DNA of 64,000 nt from Tequatrovirus NIC06P2. The notes under the pieces are model-generated. The model did not search any database. It saw nothing but the letters and a program-made list of their open reading frames with translations, and had not been told where the DNA came from. The stretch is from the sequence record OZ035760.1; one strand, written 5' to 3'. Positions 52,321 to 59,971 of the stretch are shown here, piece by piece; positions within the stretch are counted from its first letter, which is position 1; each line of letters begins with the position of its first letter. The position numbers were made by a program, and so were the translations under genes.

Positions 52321-52641
52321 TTATAGCGTAATCCATTCTCGTACTGTCTGAGTTACTACACGTTCTCGAAGCTCAACCAGTTCAACAGTAGGAACTGCAT
52401 AATACCAGTCAGAATGGTAAGAACCTGAGCGAGATTCATTTACGGAAACATATACGTAGTGTTTTGGGCTAAAGTAAATTACTCGACGATATTGGCATTT
52501 GCCTTGTTGAGTCCATTCTTCGGATTCAATCTGAATAAGATAGTCGGAAAAATCGAAATCATAGTTTTCCGAAAATGCATCATGGTCTTCGATGATTTCG
52601 CTCAGAACTGCATCAACATCTAATTTATTTTCAATAGTCAT
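52321..52641 (-). CDS. hypothetical protein (106 aa)
   Basis: ORF in track. Confidence 0.5.
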   Translation of the reverse strand: MTIENKLDVDAVLSEIIEDHDAFSENYDFDFSDYLIQIESEEWTQQGKCQYRRVIYFSPKHYVYVSVNESRSGSYHSDWYYAVPTVELVELRERVVTQTVREWITL

Positions 52642-53302: not shown

Positions 53303-53560
53303 TTATTCCTTAATTCCTAGTACTTGTTTAAAAGTCTCGTCGTAATCAAGACTTTGGCCCGTTTGTTCTTTATGTTTGTATATAATATCACTTACTTCTG
53401 ATAGCATATTTTTATATGAACGAGTTAAAGCAGATTTAAGCACGCTGTATCTATCAGGAAATTTACCATGTTCATTATAATAAGCTATTGCTAATTCACG
53501 GACTGCCTTTTCAGCAGTCTCCATATATTCTTTACGCTTGGTCATTTTCTTCTCGGTCAA
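53303..53560 (-). CDS. hypothetical protein (85 aa)
   Basis: ORF in track. Confidence 0.5.
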
Positions 53561-53849
53561 ATCGGTGTTTACAATGGCGACATTTATAACGAAGATTACT
53601 AGTCTGCCAATGAACTAATTGTACCTGTTCAGTACCGCATTCAGGACAATTAGGAACGTTTTTAGAAGCACGTTCGCGGCGTTCAACCATAACCATAATG
53701 GCATCCCAAGCAGGAGGTTTAAAGTCTAAATCATCACAACCATGAATCTTTCCACGCATTTCCAAATCGTCTTCTTCACCGGCCATAATAATTTTAATTA
53801 AACTGAAATTACTTGAAGCTGCAATGTCTTCTAATAGACGCTTTTTCAT
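53532..53849 (-). CDS. zinc-ribbon protein (105 aa)
   Basis: [30 protein letters not shown]. Confidence 0.5.
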
Positions 53850-54775
53850 TTCAATACCTCAATAGCATTACGTAAACCATTTGCTTTTGCATTAAGAGCT
53901 TTTAACAATTTGGTGTGTTCTGCAATTTGGGCTTCAACTTCAATCAAACGAGCATTGAGATATTCGCGTTCTTCACTCAGATTATCAACCTTTTCTACTT
54001 TAGGCTCTTTTACAACTGTCTTATATGTATTAGGGTTCTTCAGTTTAATTAGAATGCGTGAACTGTATAACATTGAACCATTATCTTCGGTTTCGTCATA
54101 CATTTCCACTACGTCCATCATCTCCACCATCGTGCAGAGTTTATAAGACAACGAACGAATAATTTTGTTGTGCTTATTAATTTCTCTAGCTGTCATGGTG
54201 CCGAGATTACGTGAGTAATAATAAGGAACCTGGATATTAATTAATACTGATGAACCACCTGGCTTGTGTGTTACTTCATCAGCAATAACCCAATCCTTAA
54301 CATGAACTGTATTTGTACGGTCATCGCCCGCGGTAAATAGTTTACGAGCATGCTTAAAAAGCATATTCACTTGGTCATTGAATTGACAAGCGAATTTATC
54401 AGCAAATTTAGTTTCGGGAATGGTAGATAACCAATCAGCCAAATGAGTCTTTTTAACATCGTTAACAATAGTAAATTCAACCAAATCGGTTATAGATGTC
54501 TCAGATTTAATGAAGCTCGGCTTCATAAAGTTTTTAATGTTATCACTAGCTACAGTAGAAGATAACAGACGAGAACGTTTAAACCATTGAAGCAAATTGC
54601 CTAACGAATGAGAATAAGCGTTTTGAGTATCTTTACAGATATGATTTTCCTGGCCAACATATTGAAGGAAATCACGAAGAATATTATTGATTACTGCCCT
54701 GTGTCCTATCTGATAATTACGATGTTTAGTAATAAGACTGTCAAAATAATCAATATAATGTTTACGAGTTTTCAT
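53846..54775 (-). CDS. hypothetical protein with C-terminal coiled coil (309 aa), paralog family member
   Basis: N-terminus MKTRKHYIDYF and FKRSRLLSS motif shared with next ORF; C-terminal heptad-rich tail. Confidence 0.6.
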   Translation of the reverse strand: MKTRKHYIDYFDSLITKHRNYQIGHRAVINNILRDFLQYVGQENHICKDTQNAYSHSLGNLLQWFKRSRLLSSTVASDNIKNFMKPSFIKSETSITDLVEFTIVNDVKKTHLADWLSTIPETKFADKFACQFNDQVNMLFKHARKLFTAGDDRTNTVHVKDWVIADEVTHKPGGSSVLINIQVPYYYSRNLGTMTAREINKHNKIIRSLSYKLCTMVEMMDVVEMYDETEDNGSMLYSSRILIKLKNPNTYKTVVKEPKVEKVDNLSEEREYLNARLIEVEAQIAEHTKLLKALNAKANGLRNAIEVLK

Positions 54776-54827
54776 GTTCTTCTCACTTTGTTAATGATTT
54801 GTACTCCGAGCCATCCTTGGCTTTAAA

Positions 54828-55829
54828 TTACTTAATTAACTGTAAAGCTTGTTCTAGACGATCAAGACGATTAACGGATTCTTCCCAAATCTTTTTAGCC
54901 TGCTCATATTCTTTCTGCGCTTTATTAGAAATTTCTAGAACTTCCTTATAAGCTTTTTCTAATGCAATAACTTCTGGACGAATTTCTACCGGTTCAGGTG
55001 AATCATCAAGACATTCCATTAGTTCCTCAAGGGTAGTTTCTTCTTTAGGAGTATTCACAATTTCATCACATTTTTGTTGATAAATTTCTTTATCAGTAGG
55101 TGAGTACGCGCACTTTACTTCACGAAGACTAATTACAATTTTATATCCTTCCCAACCGCATATATTCTTAAAAGGATATGTATGAATATTTTCTACTGTT
55201 TCCATACAAAGTAATGCGGTCTCTAATTGACGAGTTATAGTGCTAGCAATTGAGAAAAATTTATTAATGTTCTTTTGGTTAGCTTCTGGTGTAAAAAATC
55301 CATAATTCACAAAAATAGATACTTTATTTTTATCAAGTTCATATTCTTTTATGATAATCATATCAGAAGCCAAAGGATGAATTTGACGATAATCGCCATA
55401 ACATAATTTAGAAGCTGATTTTAGAATCTGTCCTTTGAAAAGTCTGAAATTACTAATCCAACGACGAGTAAAAATATTCTCAGGGTCTTCTTTATTATTA
55501 AGATGATAAGAATTAACATCACCGAACCAATTATATCCTACTACATCTTTGGTTCGTTTAATTTCTTTCCCAAAATTACCAAGAATATCCCGATTAACCA
55601 AATATGAAAGAAGACGAGACTCTTTAAAGGTTTTCTTGATAAGATCTTTATCTACACGACTAGAAATTTTACGAATTTCATGAATAAATTTAGTAGAAGA
55701 AACAATACCTGCATCAACACTATTGAGCCATTGATTGATAATAGAAAGAACGCTATTTTGGCCAAACATCGGTATAGCTTTATCATCAATAACGCTATTG
55801 AATGATTTGATATATTCGTTACGAGTCAT
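54828..55829 (-). CDS. hypothetical protein with C-terminal coiled coil (333 aa), paralog family member
   Basis: ATG with GAGGAG Shine-Dalgarno directly after promoter 55857..55887; MTRNEYIKSF; FKESRLLSY motif; ORF-track version reads into the promoter. Confidence 0.6.
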   Translation of the reverse strand: MTRNEYIKSFNSVIDDKAIPMFGQNSVLSIINQWLNSVDAGIVSSTKFIHEIRKISSRVDKDLIKKTFKESRLLSYLVNRDILGNFGKEIKRTKDVVGYNWFGDVNSYHLNNKEDPENIFTRRWISNFRLFKGQILKSASKLCYGDYRQIHPLASDMIIIKEYELDKNKVSIFVNYGFFTPEANQKNINKFFSIASTITRQLETALLCMETVENIHTYPFKNICGWEGYKIVISLREVKCAYSPTDKEIYQQKCDEIVNTPKEETTLEELMECLDDSPEPVEIRPEVIALEKAYKEVLEISNKAQKEYEQAKKIWEESVNRLDRLEQALQLIK

Positions 55830-55856
55830 ATTAATCTCCTCAGTAGAAAGTAAGAA

Positions 55857-55887
55857 CATTATACCACATCCTTGTGGCAAAGTAAAC
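55857..55887 (-). promoter_or_regulatory. T4-type early promoter, near-identical to the one at 10048..10078
   Basis: reverse complement CTAGTTTACTTTGCCACAAGGATGTGGTATAATG. Confidence 0.65.
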
Positions 55888-56912
55888 TAGTTCAGTGCAT
55901 TTAGCGCATTGTTCAGTTTAGAACGTTGCTTTGTCAGATTTTGAACCCTTGACTGAGCTTGTTCTAACGCCTTTTCAGCTTCTAGCACTTCATTAGTTGC
56001 TTTAACGAGTTCATCATCTACTGCCTTAAGAGACTTCTCAATCGCATCTGCATGCCATTTTTCAACAGGTTTAAGACTCGGATTTTCAACAGGAAGAAAA
56101 TTCACTTTATTAAGTTTACATGCATCTATATTGCTTGAACTATGCATCCAAAATTTAGGATCGTTTGATAAGTAATTGGATAAATTTAAATTTAAGTTAT
56201 CTTGTACTTCTTGCTTTTTCTCTTGCGGGACTTCGTCCTTTCTCAAAAAATCATATTTAAATGAAACGATCATATCAAGTTCATATGATGTTGTATCTAA
56301 CTTAAATCGTTCAAAACGAGGTAAAATCTTAGATTGAACAGCAGCAACAACATCCATATACTTAAATGCTTCTGTCAGCTGTGATTTAAGACATTCACAA
56401 ATTGAAAGAGAATTTTTAGTATTAGGCTTAAAGCTAATTCGTGCAGTTCTATTATTTTCTTTTAACGGTCTTACTTCCATCTGAAGAGTATAACCATCAA
56501 ATTTCAGATTCTTTAAGTTAATATCAGAACCTTTTAATCGACTAGCAGTAGACAAAATTTGCTTTAATTGTTTACGGAATAGAGCAATAAATCTCCATTC
56601 AAGACGATAATGATTTGGATTAAAAAATCCTGTTGATAAATCGACCTTACTCTGACCAACGCCTTGAACAAATAAAGGATTTTTATAATCAATAGTTTTA
56701 CAGAAATCGGTGAGCTGCTCACGAGCAGTCATTTGAGTAATATACCCCGCTTTACTAAAATGACGTAACCATTCACTGCTATTCATATACTTAAAGTGAA
56801 TATCACGATTAACTTTATCAGGGTCTAAATTATTTTGGCACAAAAATGTCATAACATTACGGGTATAGCTGGCATTACGAACCATATCTTCAATTTGAGA
56901 ACGAGTTTTCAT
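55887..56912 (-). CDS. hypothetical protein with C-terminal coiled coil (341 aa), paralog family member
   Basis: N-terminus MKTRSQIEDM; C-terminal heptad-rich tail. Confidence 0.6.
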   Translation of the reverse strand: MKTRSQIEDMVRNASYTRNVMTFLCQNNLDPDKVNRDIHFKYMNSSEWLRHFSKAGYITQMTAREQLTDFCKTIDYKNPLFVQGVGQSKVDLSTGFFNPNHYRLEWRFIALFRKQLKQILSTASRLKGSDINLKNLKFDGYTLQMEVRPLKENNRTARISFKPNTKNSLSICECLKSQLTEAFKYMDVVAAVQSKILPRFERFKLDTTSYELDMIVSFKYDFLRKDEVPQEKKQEVQDNLNLNLSNYLSNDPKFWMHSSSNIDACKLNKVNFLPVENPSLKPVEKWHADAIEKSLKAVDDELVKATNEVLEAEKALEQAQSRVQNLTKQRSKLNNALNALN

Positions 56913-56920
56913 GGTGTTCC

Positions 56921-57823
56921 TTAAGATTTAAGTAAATCAATAATTTTAATTAATTTTTCACGTTCAGATTTAGCTTTACTACTCAATCCAGATAGTCTGA
57001 AAATTTCATCGTCATATTGTTGAATAGAAATATTCAGCTCTTCAATTTGCTTATTAAAATAATCAATTTGTTCAGAATGTTTTTCGTTACTACGAACTGG
57101 TACAGGTTTTGTAGGCAATTTAGTTGAACTGGATTCATCCGGGCGATAAATTAAAATACAACTTGAACCAATTGGACATTTTGCACCAGATGAATATTCT
57201 AATGTTCCAGCTTCTTTTAAAATTTCAAAAGCTAAACAGAGATGATGACCCATATTGGCATAATCTGTAGAGTGAGCTCTGACGTAATAATCATCTCCAC
57301 GAGTGCTAAATTTAAAGCATTTAAGGTCTTCTGTATTATTAGTTTTAAAAATCATTTGTTTATCTAGACCTTTAGCTAATCGAGCGCCTAATGCTAATAA
57401 TCGTCGTTGATTTTCCCACAAATCTGCGATCATTTGGTCAAATGATAATTTCGGCATTAGTCGACCATAAAGGTCGTATCCTTTATTATAATTGCGAAGG
57501 ATTTCACTCGCGTTAATGCGAGACAACGCTCCAATTTTATTAAGGGCTTTCATGATGCGATTAGATAAAAGCATTCCAGATCCGTTTGTTCGTTGTAAAT
57601 GTTTTTCTAATCCAAATCCAATATCAACTTTAAACTTATCTAAAATTTCGGCGTGAACATCTTTATCAATAACATTTAAATTTAGTACTGGGTTAAATTT
57701 ATGAAAAAATTTATCTGACTCGTCGCGTTGAAGTACAGTCCATTCATTTGATTTTTTATTAACTAAAGATTTAATTACTGCATTGACATTATTAATTACT
57801 ACTGACATATTTTCCTCACTCAA
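56921..57823 (-). CDS. hypothetical protein with C-terminal coiled coil (300 aa)
   Basis: ORF in track; C-terminal tail EIFRLSGLSSKAKSEREKLIKIIDLLKS. Confidence 0.55.
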   Translation of the reverse strand: MSEENMSVVINNVNAVIKSLVNKKSNEWTVLQRDESDKFFHKFNPVLNLNVIDKDVHAEILDKFKVDIGFGLEKHLQRTNGSGMLLSNRIMKALNKIGALSRINASEILRNYNKGYDLYGRLMPKLSFDQMIADLWENQRRLLALGARLAKGLDKQMIFKTNNTEDLKCFKFSTRGDDYYVRAHSTDYANMGHHLCLAFEILKEAGTLEYSSGAKCPIGSSCILIYRPDESSSTKLPTKPVPVRSNEKHSEQIDYFNKQIEELNISIQQYDDEIFRLSGLSSKAKSEREKLIKIIDLLKS

Positions 57824-58224
57824 TTTTCAATTTTACTAAATACACAGAATATGATGGAAAAGACTATATAAGCACCGCATACAGATTGAACTAATACCAT
57901 TCCAAAGAACCAAATAATATTATCAAACCATGTCTGTTTTACGTCGAAAGGACGTAAACTTACAGTAATATTATCACCTTTTTCTATTGAAGAATACATC
58001 TCTGGCGAAATATATTCGCTAAATCTATAACCGTCTTTGAGTTCATATACGGCAATAAACGATAAACTAGACCCCTTTCCTTGAGTTCCTGTAAGGGTAT
58101 TAACTACAGTAACATCATAATCTTTATAATGCATATAATCATTAATTGCGTAATAACCATATGCAATTACTATACATAAACAACATATCAATAAATTCAA
58201 TCTTTTAATTATCAACTGTTTCAT
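57820..58224 (-). CDS. membrane protein (134 aa) with N- and C-terminal hydrophobic helices
   Basis: LNLLICCLCIVIAYGYYAI and IIWFFGMVLVQSVCGAYIVFSIIFCVF. Confidence 0.5.
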   Translation of the reverse strand: MKQLIIKRLNLLICCLCIVIAYGYYAINDYMHYKDYDVTVVNTLTGTQGKGSSLSFIAVYELKDGYRFSEYISPEMYSSIEKGDNITVSLRPFDVKQTWFDNIIWFFGMVLVQSVCGAYIVFSIIFCVFSKIEN

Positions 58225-58279: not shown

Positions 58280-58807
58280 TTATGCGAGTACCGTCTTTAA
58301 CCGTTCTTCAAACTTCCGAAGAGTATTTTGGCGTTCAGCTCTTTGCTTTTTGTAAGTTTCAATACGCTCTGAAATGAGAGTGTATCGTTCATTTACTGAT
58401 TCTTTCATAAAATCAGGAATTTCACGAGAAGCTTTAATCTCGTCAAATTTATCAATAACAGCTTGCTCTTCAGCAATTAAGTTATCATACATCAAAATAT
58501 CTTTCTTGATGAACCCAATATCTTCTTGAGTTACACGAGATAATTTAGATGCTTTATCCTTTTTGTACTGTTCGTTAGTATCACGAGACCAGTGTAATGT
58601 ACGATTTTTATTCGTATTCTTGTAAATTTCTACAATACCAATCTCATCAATAATAACGATCCAATTCCAACGGGATTTGTAAATTTGTCCTCCATCAACC
58701 GTGATTTCACCTCCGATTGAGATGTCATTAAAGAACTTGCTTTGCGCTTCAGATTTAAATTTACCATCGTTGTAATTTACCAGGTTGAAAATATCTTTAG
58801 CGTTCAT
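58280..58807 (-). CDS. hypothetical protein (175 aa)
   Basis: ATG (MNAKDIF) downstream of promoter 58835..58864; ORF-track version reads through the promoter. Confidence 0.55.
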   Translation of the reverse strand: MNAKDIFNLVNYNDGKFKSEAQSKFFNDISIGGEITVDGGQIYKSRWNWIVIIDEIGIVEIYKNTNKNRTLHWSRDTNEQYKKDKASKLSRVTQEDIGFIKKDILMYDNLIAEEQAVIDKFDEIKASREIPDFMKESVNERYTLISERIETYKKQRAERQNTLRKFEERLKTVLA

Positions 58808-59251: not shown

Positions 59252-59971
59252 TTAGGATTCTTCTAAATGTCTTTTCTGAAAAGTTGATACCATACTACGA
59301 TACGGTTCATTTGGATATCCGTGTTTTATAGCTTCCTTTGTAAATTTTCTCCATCCATATTTAGTTTCTTTCCAAAGCTCGAATAATTCATCTTCATACT
59401 GCCATATAGTTAAATGAGAACGCTTTGCAGCTTTAATTCCATTAATATGCTTTTCTTTTACTGTAGGATTGCTTAGTTTCTTTTTAATAATATTACTAAC
59501 TTTTCTAACAAAAACTGGGTCCTTATATCGTTGCGAAGTTTTTATTGAAGTGTTTAATTTAGCTTCCGGCGTGGATGTGACCTCTTTCATCTTTTTCTTC
59601 ATATGCTGTATATGATTAGGATTTTTCCATAAATTTATAGAATGCTTTTTGCATTTTATCCTAGTTTCATCTGCAACCTTTCCTCCTTCACCCCCGTATG
59701 ACAGGTTAACACAGTTTTTTCCATATTTCAATTTACCTGCCATGATATATAATATTTCAGCTTGTACCATTTTATCATAATTATCAAAAACTTCTAAAAC
59801 CGTTTTTGATAATATGTGGTCATTTGACACTTTTACACGTTCTATATAATTTCCACTACCAACATACGAATCATTGATGTTATTAGTTATATGTCGACCA
59901 TAATAGTATTTCTTAATACCTGTCTTTAAATTTAATATTTCAGTTTTATAGATAGTAAAATATTTTTTCAT
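59252..59971 (-). CDS. putative GIY-YIG family endonuclease (Seg-like)
   Basis: N-terminal FTIYKTEILNLKTGIKKYYYGRH ... YVGSG ... NLSYGG resembles the GIY-YIG core; basic repeat-rich C-terminus; C-terminal GYPNEPYRSMVSTF module shared with HNH ORF 23091..23927. Confidence 0.5.
   Translation of the reverse strand: MKKYFTIYKTEILNLKTGIKKYYYGRHITNNINDSYVGSGNYIERVKVSNDHILSKTVLEVFDNYDKMVQAEILYIMAGKLKYGKNCVNLSYGGEGGKVADETRIKCKKHSINLWKNPNHIQHMKKKMKEVTSTPEAKLNTSIKTSQRYKDPVFVRKVSNIIKKKLSNPTVKEKHINGIKAAKRSHLTIWQYEDELFELWKETKYGWRKFTKEAIKHGYPNEPYRSMVSTFQKRHLEES

Follow-up and report, generated by a model that had tools for sequence, protein, structure and literature searches.

A tandem family of NrdC.5-related proteins in the nrdC region of Tequatrovirus NIC06P2, with candidate counter-defence roles

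The 64,000-nucleotide stretch of Tequatrovirus NIC06P2 analysed here (OZ035760.1; hereafter the window) carries a block composed entirely of minus-strand genes: nrdD, gene 49, pin, 49.1-49.3, nrdC, and nrdC.1 to nrdC.11 follow one another in this sequence, phage T4 being the comparison reference for gene names. Within this block a first-pass annotation, made from the sequence alone, had pointed to a tandem array of four open reading frames (ORFs) at 53846-57823 and had taken them for a locally duplicated, diverging family. The array is there, and its members, of 295 to 341 amino acids (aa), were identified by synteny and identity with phages T4, Shfl2 and Bas37 as nrdC.3, nrdC.4, nrdC.5 and nrdC.6 (Table 1). 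These genes are already catalogued in T4, and one of them has a published function. Our analysis indicates that all four very likely belong to one fold superfamily of common ancestry. T4 NrdC.5 counters the host defence Dsr1, and NrdC.3, NrdC.4 and NrdC.6 are candidate inhibitors of other defences since they are diverged copies of the same protein.

Table 1. Features of the array and its surroundings in the window (aa, amino acids; E, expect value)
Feature	Coordinates	Strand	Length (aa)	Details
nrdC.3 (ORF A)	53846..54775	-	309	60% identity to T4 NrdC.3; PHROG 1435, E 1e-115
nrdC.4 (ORF B)	54828..55829	-	333	98% identity to T4 NrdC.4; PHROG 1435, E 9e-169
nrdC.5 (ORF C)	55887..56912	-	341	94% identity to T4 NrdC.5 over full length
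nrdC.6 (ORF D)	56921..57808	-	295	94% identity to T4 NrdC.6 over 259 aa; PHROG 2257, E 3e-150
nrdC.3 tail, residues 263-309	53849..53989	-		heptad register anchored at C-terminus
nrdC.4 tail helix, residues 285-333	54831..54977	-		AlphaFold2 helix 285-332
nrdC.5 tail, residues 284-341	55890..56063	-		heptad register and QR.KL motif; alignment
nrdC.6 tail, residues 241-295	56924..57088	-		AlphaFold2 helices; invariant DDEIFRL motif
T4-early-type promoter of nrdC.4 (consensus match only)	55858..55886	-		GTTTACT-N17-TGGTATAAT; score 10/12, extended -10 element
nrdC.2	53532..53849	-	105	CPEC...CRHC zinc-ribbon-like motif
nrdC.1	53303..53545	-		100% identity to T4 NrdC.1
Gp49.2-like ORF	52321..52641	-	106	88% identity to T4 Gp49.2
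nrdC.7	57820..58224	-	134	hydrophobic N- and C-terminal segments
nrdC.8	58280..58807	-	175	99% identity to Bas37_0203 (phage KarlGJung, MZ501089)
GIY-YIG-like (Seg/Mob-type) homing-endonuclease gene	59252..59971	-		between nrdC.9 and nrdC.10

ORFs A, B and D are orthologues of T4 NrdC.3, NrdC.4 and NrdC.6, while ORF C is the orthologue of T4 NrdC.5 by its position, its identity (20 positions differ between the two proteins) and a full-length match to the DUF7235 model. Two of the starts first proposed, those of nrdC.4 and nrdC.6, were corrected. The nrdC.4 start is the ATG of MTRNEY behind a GAGGAG ribosome-binding site; a TTG-extended ORF reaching up to 55880 was rejected because the extension enters the gene's own promoter. 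For nrdC.6 the reading frame opens with the ATG at 57808, which is preceded by a GAGG ribosome-binding site, and the TTG at 57823 was regarded as an upstream extension and not taken as start. The genes nrdC.7, nrdC.6 and nrdC.5 are tightly packed, with 11 nucleotides between the end of nrdC.7 and the start of nrdC.6 and 8 between the nrdC.6 stop and the start of nrdC.5, and the nrdC.3 stop shares four nucleotides (ATGA) with the nrdC.2 start. The same ATGA overlap joins the last family member to the nrdC.2 homologue in Klebsiella phage Marfa, Enterobacter phage IME523, Mosigvirus HX01, and the Gaprivervirus and Dhakavirus loci; by genus, Tequatrovirus, Mosigvirus, Gaprivervirus, Marfavirus and Kanagawavirus show it, and the pattern suggests that the two genes form a conserved, translationally coupled pair across the genera examined.

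Among the four proteins, the relationship is strongest between NrdC.3 and NrdC.4. Related N-termini had been noticed in three of the ORFs, and all are present: MKTRKHYIDYF in NrdC.3, MTRNEYIKSF in NrdC.4, and MKTRSQIEDM in NrdC.5. The FK(R/E)SRLLS motif reported for two ORFs is carried by NrdC.3 and NrdC.4. These two proteins align by blastp with 26.5% identity over 226 body residues and by hhalign at 97.8% (E 9e-13), both fall in PHROG 1435, and by sequence they are clearly paralogs. A paralogous relationship is likewise well supported by profile alignment for NrdC.4 and NrdC.5 (hhalign 87%, E 4e-6), the roughly 240 collinear columns spanning an RW..F...ILKSAxKL helix and a QLxxAxxYM helix. 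When 1.84 billion representative sequences were searched with the NrdC.3/4 profile, 11 proteins matched in all. One of them, the 315-aa P0237 from Klebsiella T4-like (Marfa-type) phages, matches the profile over its full length (E 6e-6) and bridges the two groups: its N-terminus is of NrdC.4 type, its tail is of NrdC.5 type, and it also matches the NrdC.5 profile (93%, E 3e-7).

The place of NrdC.6 depends on fainter sequence signals and on structure models. With hhalign, NrdC.4 and NrdC.6 are collinear over 197 columns at 44% (E 2e-4), and NrdC.5 and NrdC.6 reach just 1.3%; NrdC.6 does not have the M(K)TR..YI N-terminus, and Pfam and PHROGs keep three separate families. These observations would suit a reading in which NrdC.6, in particular, is unrelated to the rest and shares with it no more than a comparable size and a coiled-coil tail that arose by convergence. 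We consider that reading very improbable in view of the structural and bridging evidence. Foldseek, run with the AlphaFold2 model of NrdC.4 against BFVD, retrieved the NrdC.6 of phage JS10 over its full length with E 2e-5 and probability 1.0. In reciprocal searches the NrdC.4 and NrdC.6 models retrieve the same Straboviridae proteins, with template modelling (TM) scores of about 0.45-0.5; the proteins of this shared set are uncharacterised, measure 300-370 aa and come from T4-like phages of Enterobacter, Pectobacterium, Acinetobacter, Klebsiella, Yersinia and Serratia. Secondary-structure elements also follow one another in the same sequence in the two models. The single-copy protein gp085 of IME523 is matched by the hidden Markov models (HMMs) of NrdC.5 (7e-8), NrdC.6 (1.5e-7, over body and tail) and NrdC.3/4 (4e-4), and an ILxxxxRL/KLxxG helix motif and a P-V-P-V/EKH tail-entry motif are collinear between NrdC.6 and its relatives. 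On the evidence of hhalign, Foldseek and the bridging proteins, the first-pass view of a locally duplicated, diverging family holds; the similarity also extends beyond the coiled coil, body matches being found for NrdC.3-NrdC.4 by blastp and hhalign, for NrdC.4-NrdC.5 by hhalign, and for NrdC.4-NrdC.6 by Foldseek. For NrdC.8, which also ends in a long charged helix, hhalign indicated no relationship with the family.

Current databases do not reveal this unity. NrdC.5 matches Pfam DUF7235 (PF23882) with 394.3 bits against a cut-off of 30 (protein 1-341, model 1-307); no DUF7235 match was obtained in NrdC.3, NrdC.4 or NrdC.6 at E up to 1. Since they are related to it at the profile-profile or fold level only, these three are superfamily relatives of DUF7235 and not members. 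In a precomputed table NrdC.4 homologues carry Pfam PF26897 and NrdC.6 homologues PF26899, so that Pfam and PHROGs divide the four genes into three families: DUF7235; PF26897/PHROG 1435; and PF26899/PHROG 2257. One superfamily is thereby split into three that look unrelated. Sequence searches of Pfam, NCBIfam and the Protein Data Bank (PDB) gave no match that explains the fold; designed helical repeats, the Smc coiled coil, a tyrosine recombinase, and PgrA came up as sub-threshold noise. Foldseek of the NrdC.4 model against the PDB yielded nothing below E 0.02, the best matches being Bet3/TRAPP at E 0.03, with Rpb11 also weak. The tail-terminator-like fold of lambda gpU matched weakly as well (E 0.32-0.52, TM 0.33-0.43). 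Because these PDB matches are weak, we assign no fold and do not claim that the proteins are decoys of a virion protein.

The four proteins are built alike. In each, a basic alpha/beta body of about 220-245 aa is joined through a disordered linker to a C-terminal helix of about 47-58 aa. The heads are basic throughout (isoelectric point 9.0-9.6, net charge +5 to +12), and the linkers and tails are neutral to acidic. The AlphaFold2 model of NrdC.4 has a mean predicted local distance difference test score (pLDDT) of 82.9 and a predicted TM score (pTM) of 0.67, and that of NrdC.6 has a pLDDT of 77 and a pTM of 0.65; both show the same layout of N-terminal helical part, alpha/beta region, low-confidence linker and terminal helix, the last being single in NrdC.4 and represented by helices 241-271 and 277-294 in NrdC.6. 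The heptad-like tails first noticed in all four ORFs are borne out by these predicted helices and by a shared register. Counted from the C-terminus, heptad positions a and d are hydrophobic in every tail in one unbroken register over 6-7 heptads; the tails end in an (I/L)xx(L/I)K-type sequence, or in ...ALN in NrdC.5. The single-copy relatives of Marfa and IME523 have the same heptad pattern in their tails, and a [QE]R.KL motif with the Arg at an a position is common to the tails of NrdC.5, NrdC.6, Marfa and IME523. A home-made heptad score exceeded that of shuffled tails only marginally (p 0.03-0.2); support for a coiled coil therefore comes from the predicted helices and the common register rather than from a calibrated predictor. 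On the models, the amphipathic C-terminal helix most likely forms a coiled coil. The tails are nevertheless not one simple conserved module: this was considered and rejected because a single pair was significant in tail-only profile comparison (NrdC.3 against NrdC.5, in register, hhalign E 1.4e-4). An internal 83-aa duplication was seen in one NrdC.6 protein (P0126).

Comparison across T-even genomes, which the first-pass annotation had proposed as a check, gave one, three or four copies in the same slot. The Klebsiella phage Marfa and the Enterobacter phage IME523, both distant T4-like phages, have a single family member there; the Gaprivervirus and Dhakavirus loci hold three, of.6,.5 and.4 type; Mosigvirus HX01 also has three, of.6,.5 and.3 type, the last 85% identical to the window NrdC.3; and Tequatrovirus, in which both.3 and.4 are present, has four. 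The four genes very likely descend from one ancestral gene whose place in T4-like phages is a constant slot immediately ahead of nrdC.2, and the slot grew from one copy to three, and to four in Tequatrovirus. At the DNA level the copies share only short chance matches and the ribosome-binding site-ATGAAAACTCGT start common to nrdC.3 and nrdC.5; as no DNA repeats are left between them, the duplications are old and not recent repeats. When IMG/VR was scanned a second time, now using the NrdC.6 profile, it yielded the contigs already retrieved and no further loci. Neither the superfamily of all four proteins on the NrdC.5 scaffold nor the expansion of the slot from one to four copies was found described in the papers searched.

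Rearranged versions of the array also occur in nature. In the metagenomic protein P0124, NrdC.5 and NrdC.3 are fused with deletion of nrdC.4, the junction lying at a short FN(K/D)(-/Q)VN microhomology, and in phage ACG-C40 (NC_019399, 47512-47727) the last 72 codons of nrdC.3 are all that remains of the gene. In the T4 reference (NC_000866, 11997-12200, compared with window 56915-57125) nrdC.6 has a 1-nucleotide deletion just before the tail, GAGCTG-ATATTT in place of GAGCTGAATATTT. Because of this deletion the annotated T4 NrdC.6 is a tail-less protein of 275 aa, with the tail sequence intact in the +1 frame; the window nrdC.6 keeps the tail. The frameshift is due either to a mutation in the laboratory strain or to an error in the old sequence determination.

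The pace of divergence was estimated within Tequatrovirus from pairwise Nei-Gojobori ratios of nonsynonymous to synonymous substitution rates (dN/dS), for whole genes and by region. The ratios were 0.29 for nrdC.3, 0.21 for nrdC.4, 0.18 for nrdC.5 and 0.12 for nrdC.6; nrdC and gene 49 gave 0.01, and nrdC.8 gave 0.04, so that the array evolves at 10-30 times the dN/dS of its core neighbours. Positive selection was not detected by this pairwise analysis by region, dN/dS being below 1 everywhere. The tails are the most constrained region (0.04 in nrdC.4, against 0.19-0.31 for its body, and 0.02 in nrdC.6); in nrdC.4, nrdC.5 and nrdC.6, constraint is weakest over the first 80-100 residues and in the linkers. 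Across genera the tails of NrdC.4 and NrdC.6 are 55-81% identical against 29-54% for the bodies (57-81% against 29-51% for NrdC.4 alone), and in NrdC.5 the corresponding ranges are 29-66% and 21-40%. Between paralogs, the tails differ as much as the bodies (20-23% identity for NrdC.3 and NrdC.4). The window nrdC.3 belongs to another allele class than that of T4: the two proteins are about 90% identical in the first 60 residues, 77% in the tail, and only 37-57% in the body. Among 653 phage records, 358 carry an nrdC.3 allele of at least 90% identity, 4 lie at 80-90%, 191 at 60-80%, and 100 below 60%. As far as can be read from the alleles, this variation looks like cassette replacement of the body between conserved flanks. 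The term 'diversifying', first applied to the family, consequently stands in part: the raised dN/dS and the replaced nrdC.3 bodies agree with it, and the ratios below 1 and the conserved tails do not.

The functional anchor of the family is NrdC.5. When T4 nrdC.5 is supplied in trans, an evolved, nrdC.5-deleted T4 clone plates again on E. coli with the dsr1 gene from ECOR17 (Srikant, Guegler and Laub 2022, eLife, PMC9391042), and by this restored infection of a Dsr1 host T4 NrdC.5 is an anti-Dsr1 factor. No other anti-Dsr1 factor was found in the papers searched. The description 'of unknown function' given to the whole family therefore does not apply to NrdC.5, and it stands for NrdC.3, NrdC.4 and NrdC.6, which share the head-linker-tail plan of T4 NrdC.5 as remote homologues with different heads and orthologue-specific tails. 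The surroundings point the same way. The HIDEN-SEQ paper (PMC13716836) reports T4 nrdC.1 as an anti-Septu factor and Bas37_0203 as an anti-Druantia III factor; T6 Gp49.2 inhibits OLD (PMC13096335). All three have close relatives beside the array (Table 1), and since these neighbours are orthologous to published anti-defence factors, the array, with pin and its own nrdC.5, sits in an anti-defence island of about 51.7-58.9 kb. Bas37_0203 itself was ruled out as one of the four array genes; it is the orthologue of NrdC.8 next door. The array fits the profile of accessory anti-defence genes in that phages can do without its members, their presence varies, they evolve fast, and they lie among other genes of this kind. 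Together with the NrdC.5 literature, these neighbours lend support to the host-interaction or anti-defence role that had been guessed for the family. The T-even anti-defence islands (dmd-tifA-adfA; gp49.2, nrdC.1, nrdC.8) are likewise clusters of dispensable early accessory genes, each directed against one host system; their other known members are small, unrelated and single-copy, whereas the array consists of tandem relatives of 300-340 aa built on one scaffold.

These elements combine into a picture that we regard as moderately probable: the array encodes oligomeric inhibitors, each acting against a different host immune protein, the anti-defence activity being demonstrated for NrdC.5 and extended to the others by relationship. 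Judged from the promoter consensus and from what is known of T4, the genes would be expressed early. The tail would oligomerise each protein, as its predicted helix, heptad register and strong constraint suggest, and the variable basic head would bind directly to, and block, one host immune protein. NrdC.5 would block Dsr1, an NADase of SIR2 type, and plausibly does so by taking up the sensor domain of that protein. The model for such action is DSAD1, an SPbeta-type phage protein that inhibits the SIR2-domain NADase DSR2 by binding to it (Garb et al. 2022; structures PMC11087589, PMC10973363). The likeness is by analogy only: DSAD1 targets DSR2 and not Dsr1, and no sequence or fold relationship between DSAD1 and NrdC.5 was found here. 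The tetratricopeptide-repeat (TPR) sensor of Dsr1 is reported to recognise phage major capsid proteins (2026 preprint, PMC12803255); no publication on the mechanism of NrdC.5 was found in the papers searched. Given the paralogy, the genomic context and the evolutionary behaviour of the genes, NrdC.3, NrdC.4 and NrdC.6 may each be aimed at another defence.

Several points weigh against this picture. No experiment that links NrdC.3, NrdC.4 or NrdC.6 to a defence was found, and neither the HIDEN-SEQ paper nor the other papers searched mention a phenotype. With dN/dS below 1 everywhere, a codon-level arms race is not demonstrated. The sequence link of NrdC.6 is sub-threshold by hhalign and leans on models of moderate confidence (the NrdC.6 pLDDT given above). 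Finally, nucleic acid is an equally possible ligand of the basic heads.

The last point can be widened into an account that has nothing to do with immunity as such, in which DNA or RNA is bound by the basic heads and the proteins modulate early nucleic-acid transactions of phage or host, the rescue on Dsr1 being indirect. The contrast between basic heads and neutral to acidic linkers and tails would suit it, as would a block dominated by genes of nucleotide metabolism (nrdD, nrdC, gene 49) and the fact that a defence target is known for just one of the four proteins. We nevertheless hold this account to be unlikely: the NrdC.5 rescue on Dsr1 is specific (PMC9391042), the Pfam, NCBIfam and PDB searches found no nucleic-acid-binding domain, the genes can be lost and are not present everywhere, which sets them apart from core replication or transcription factors, and several immediate neighbours are orthologous to proven anti-defence genes.

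The conserved tails also admit another arrangement, in which the paralogs are subunits of one tail-held hetero-oligomer with a single function, be it anti-Dsr1 or some other early host-takeover task. Tequatrovirus, Mosigvirus, Gaprivervirus and Dhakavirus all retain genes of the.6,.5 and.3-or-.4 types side by side and in one common order, nrdC.7/.6/.5 and nrdC.3/.2 are tightly coupled, and the tails are both specific to each orthologue group and the most conserved segment, as expected of co-evolving interfaces. A plasmid-borne nrdC.5 on its own, however, restored infection by the deletion clone (PMC9391042), and one copy suffices in Marfa and IME523. Natural phages, moreover, tolerate the loss of nrdC.4 (the P0124 fusion) or of most of nrdC.3 (ACG-C40), and the T4 NrdC.6 is tail-less; from one paralog to another, tail similarity does not exceed body similarity, and the tails are mostly non-significant in tail-only hhalign. 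A shared complex of this kind is accordingly given a low probability, and we retain the picture of separate inhibitors.

An extension of that picture is speculative, and we would not put much weight on it: the array may be a modular inhibitor platform in which the conserved N-terminus and tail double as recombination handles for body swaps, the orthologue-specific tails sort the paralogs into homo- or mixed oligomers, and the array as a whole displays several heads. The nrdC.3 allele classes would fit such a platform, since the ends of the protein are 77-90% identical and the bodies 37-57%. Were it true, a single array could neutralise several oligomeric immune sensors of the host simultaneously, and NrdC.2 could be a shared partner of the array.

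The analysis reveals no new kind of system. It turns three 'hypothetical proteins' of T4 into specific candidates for new counter-defence functions, and the pattern of the array suggests a division of labour in which the head confers specificity and the tail oligomerisation. In the T4-like phages of Klebsiella and Enterobacter that were examined a single copy is found, compared with three to four in coliphages.

Two further observations concern the genes upstream of the array. NrdC.7 is annotated in T4 as a predicted membrane protein, and its annotated length differs between phages, being 129 aa in Bas37 and 105 aa in Shfl2. The homing-endonuclease gene of the window (Table 1) stands at a position, between nrdC.9 and nrdC.10, that no gene occupies in T4, where mobD lies further on, a sign of local mosaicism.

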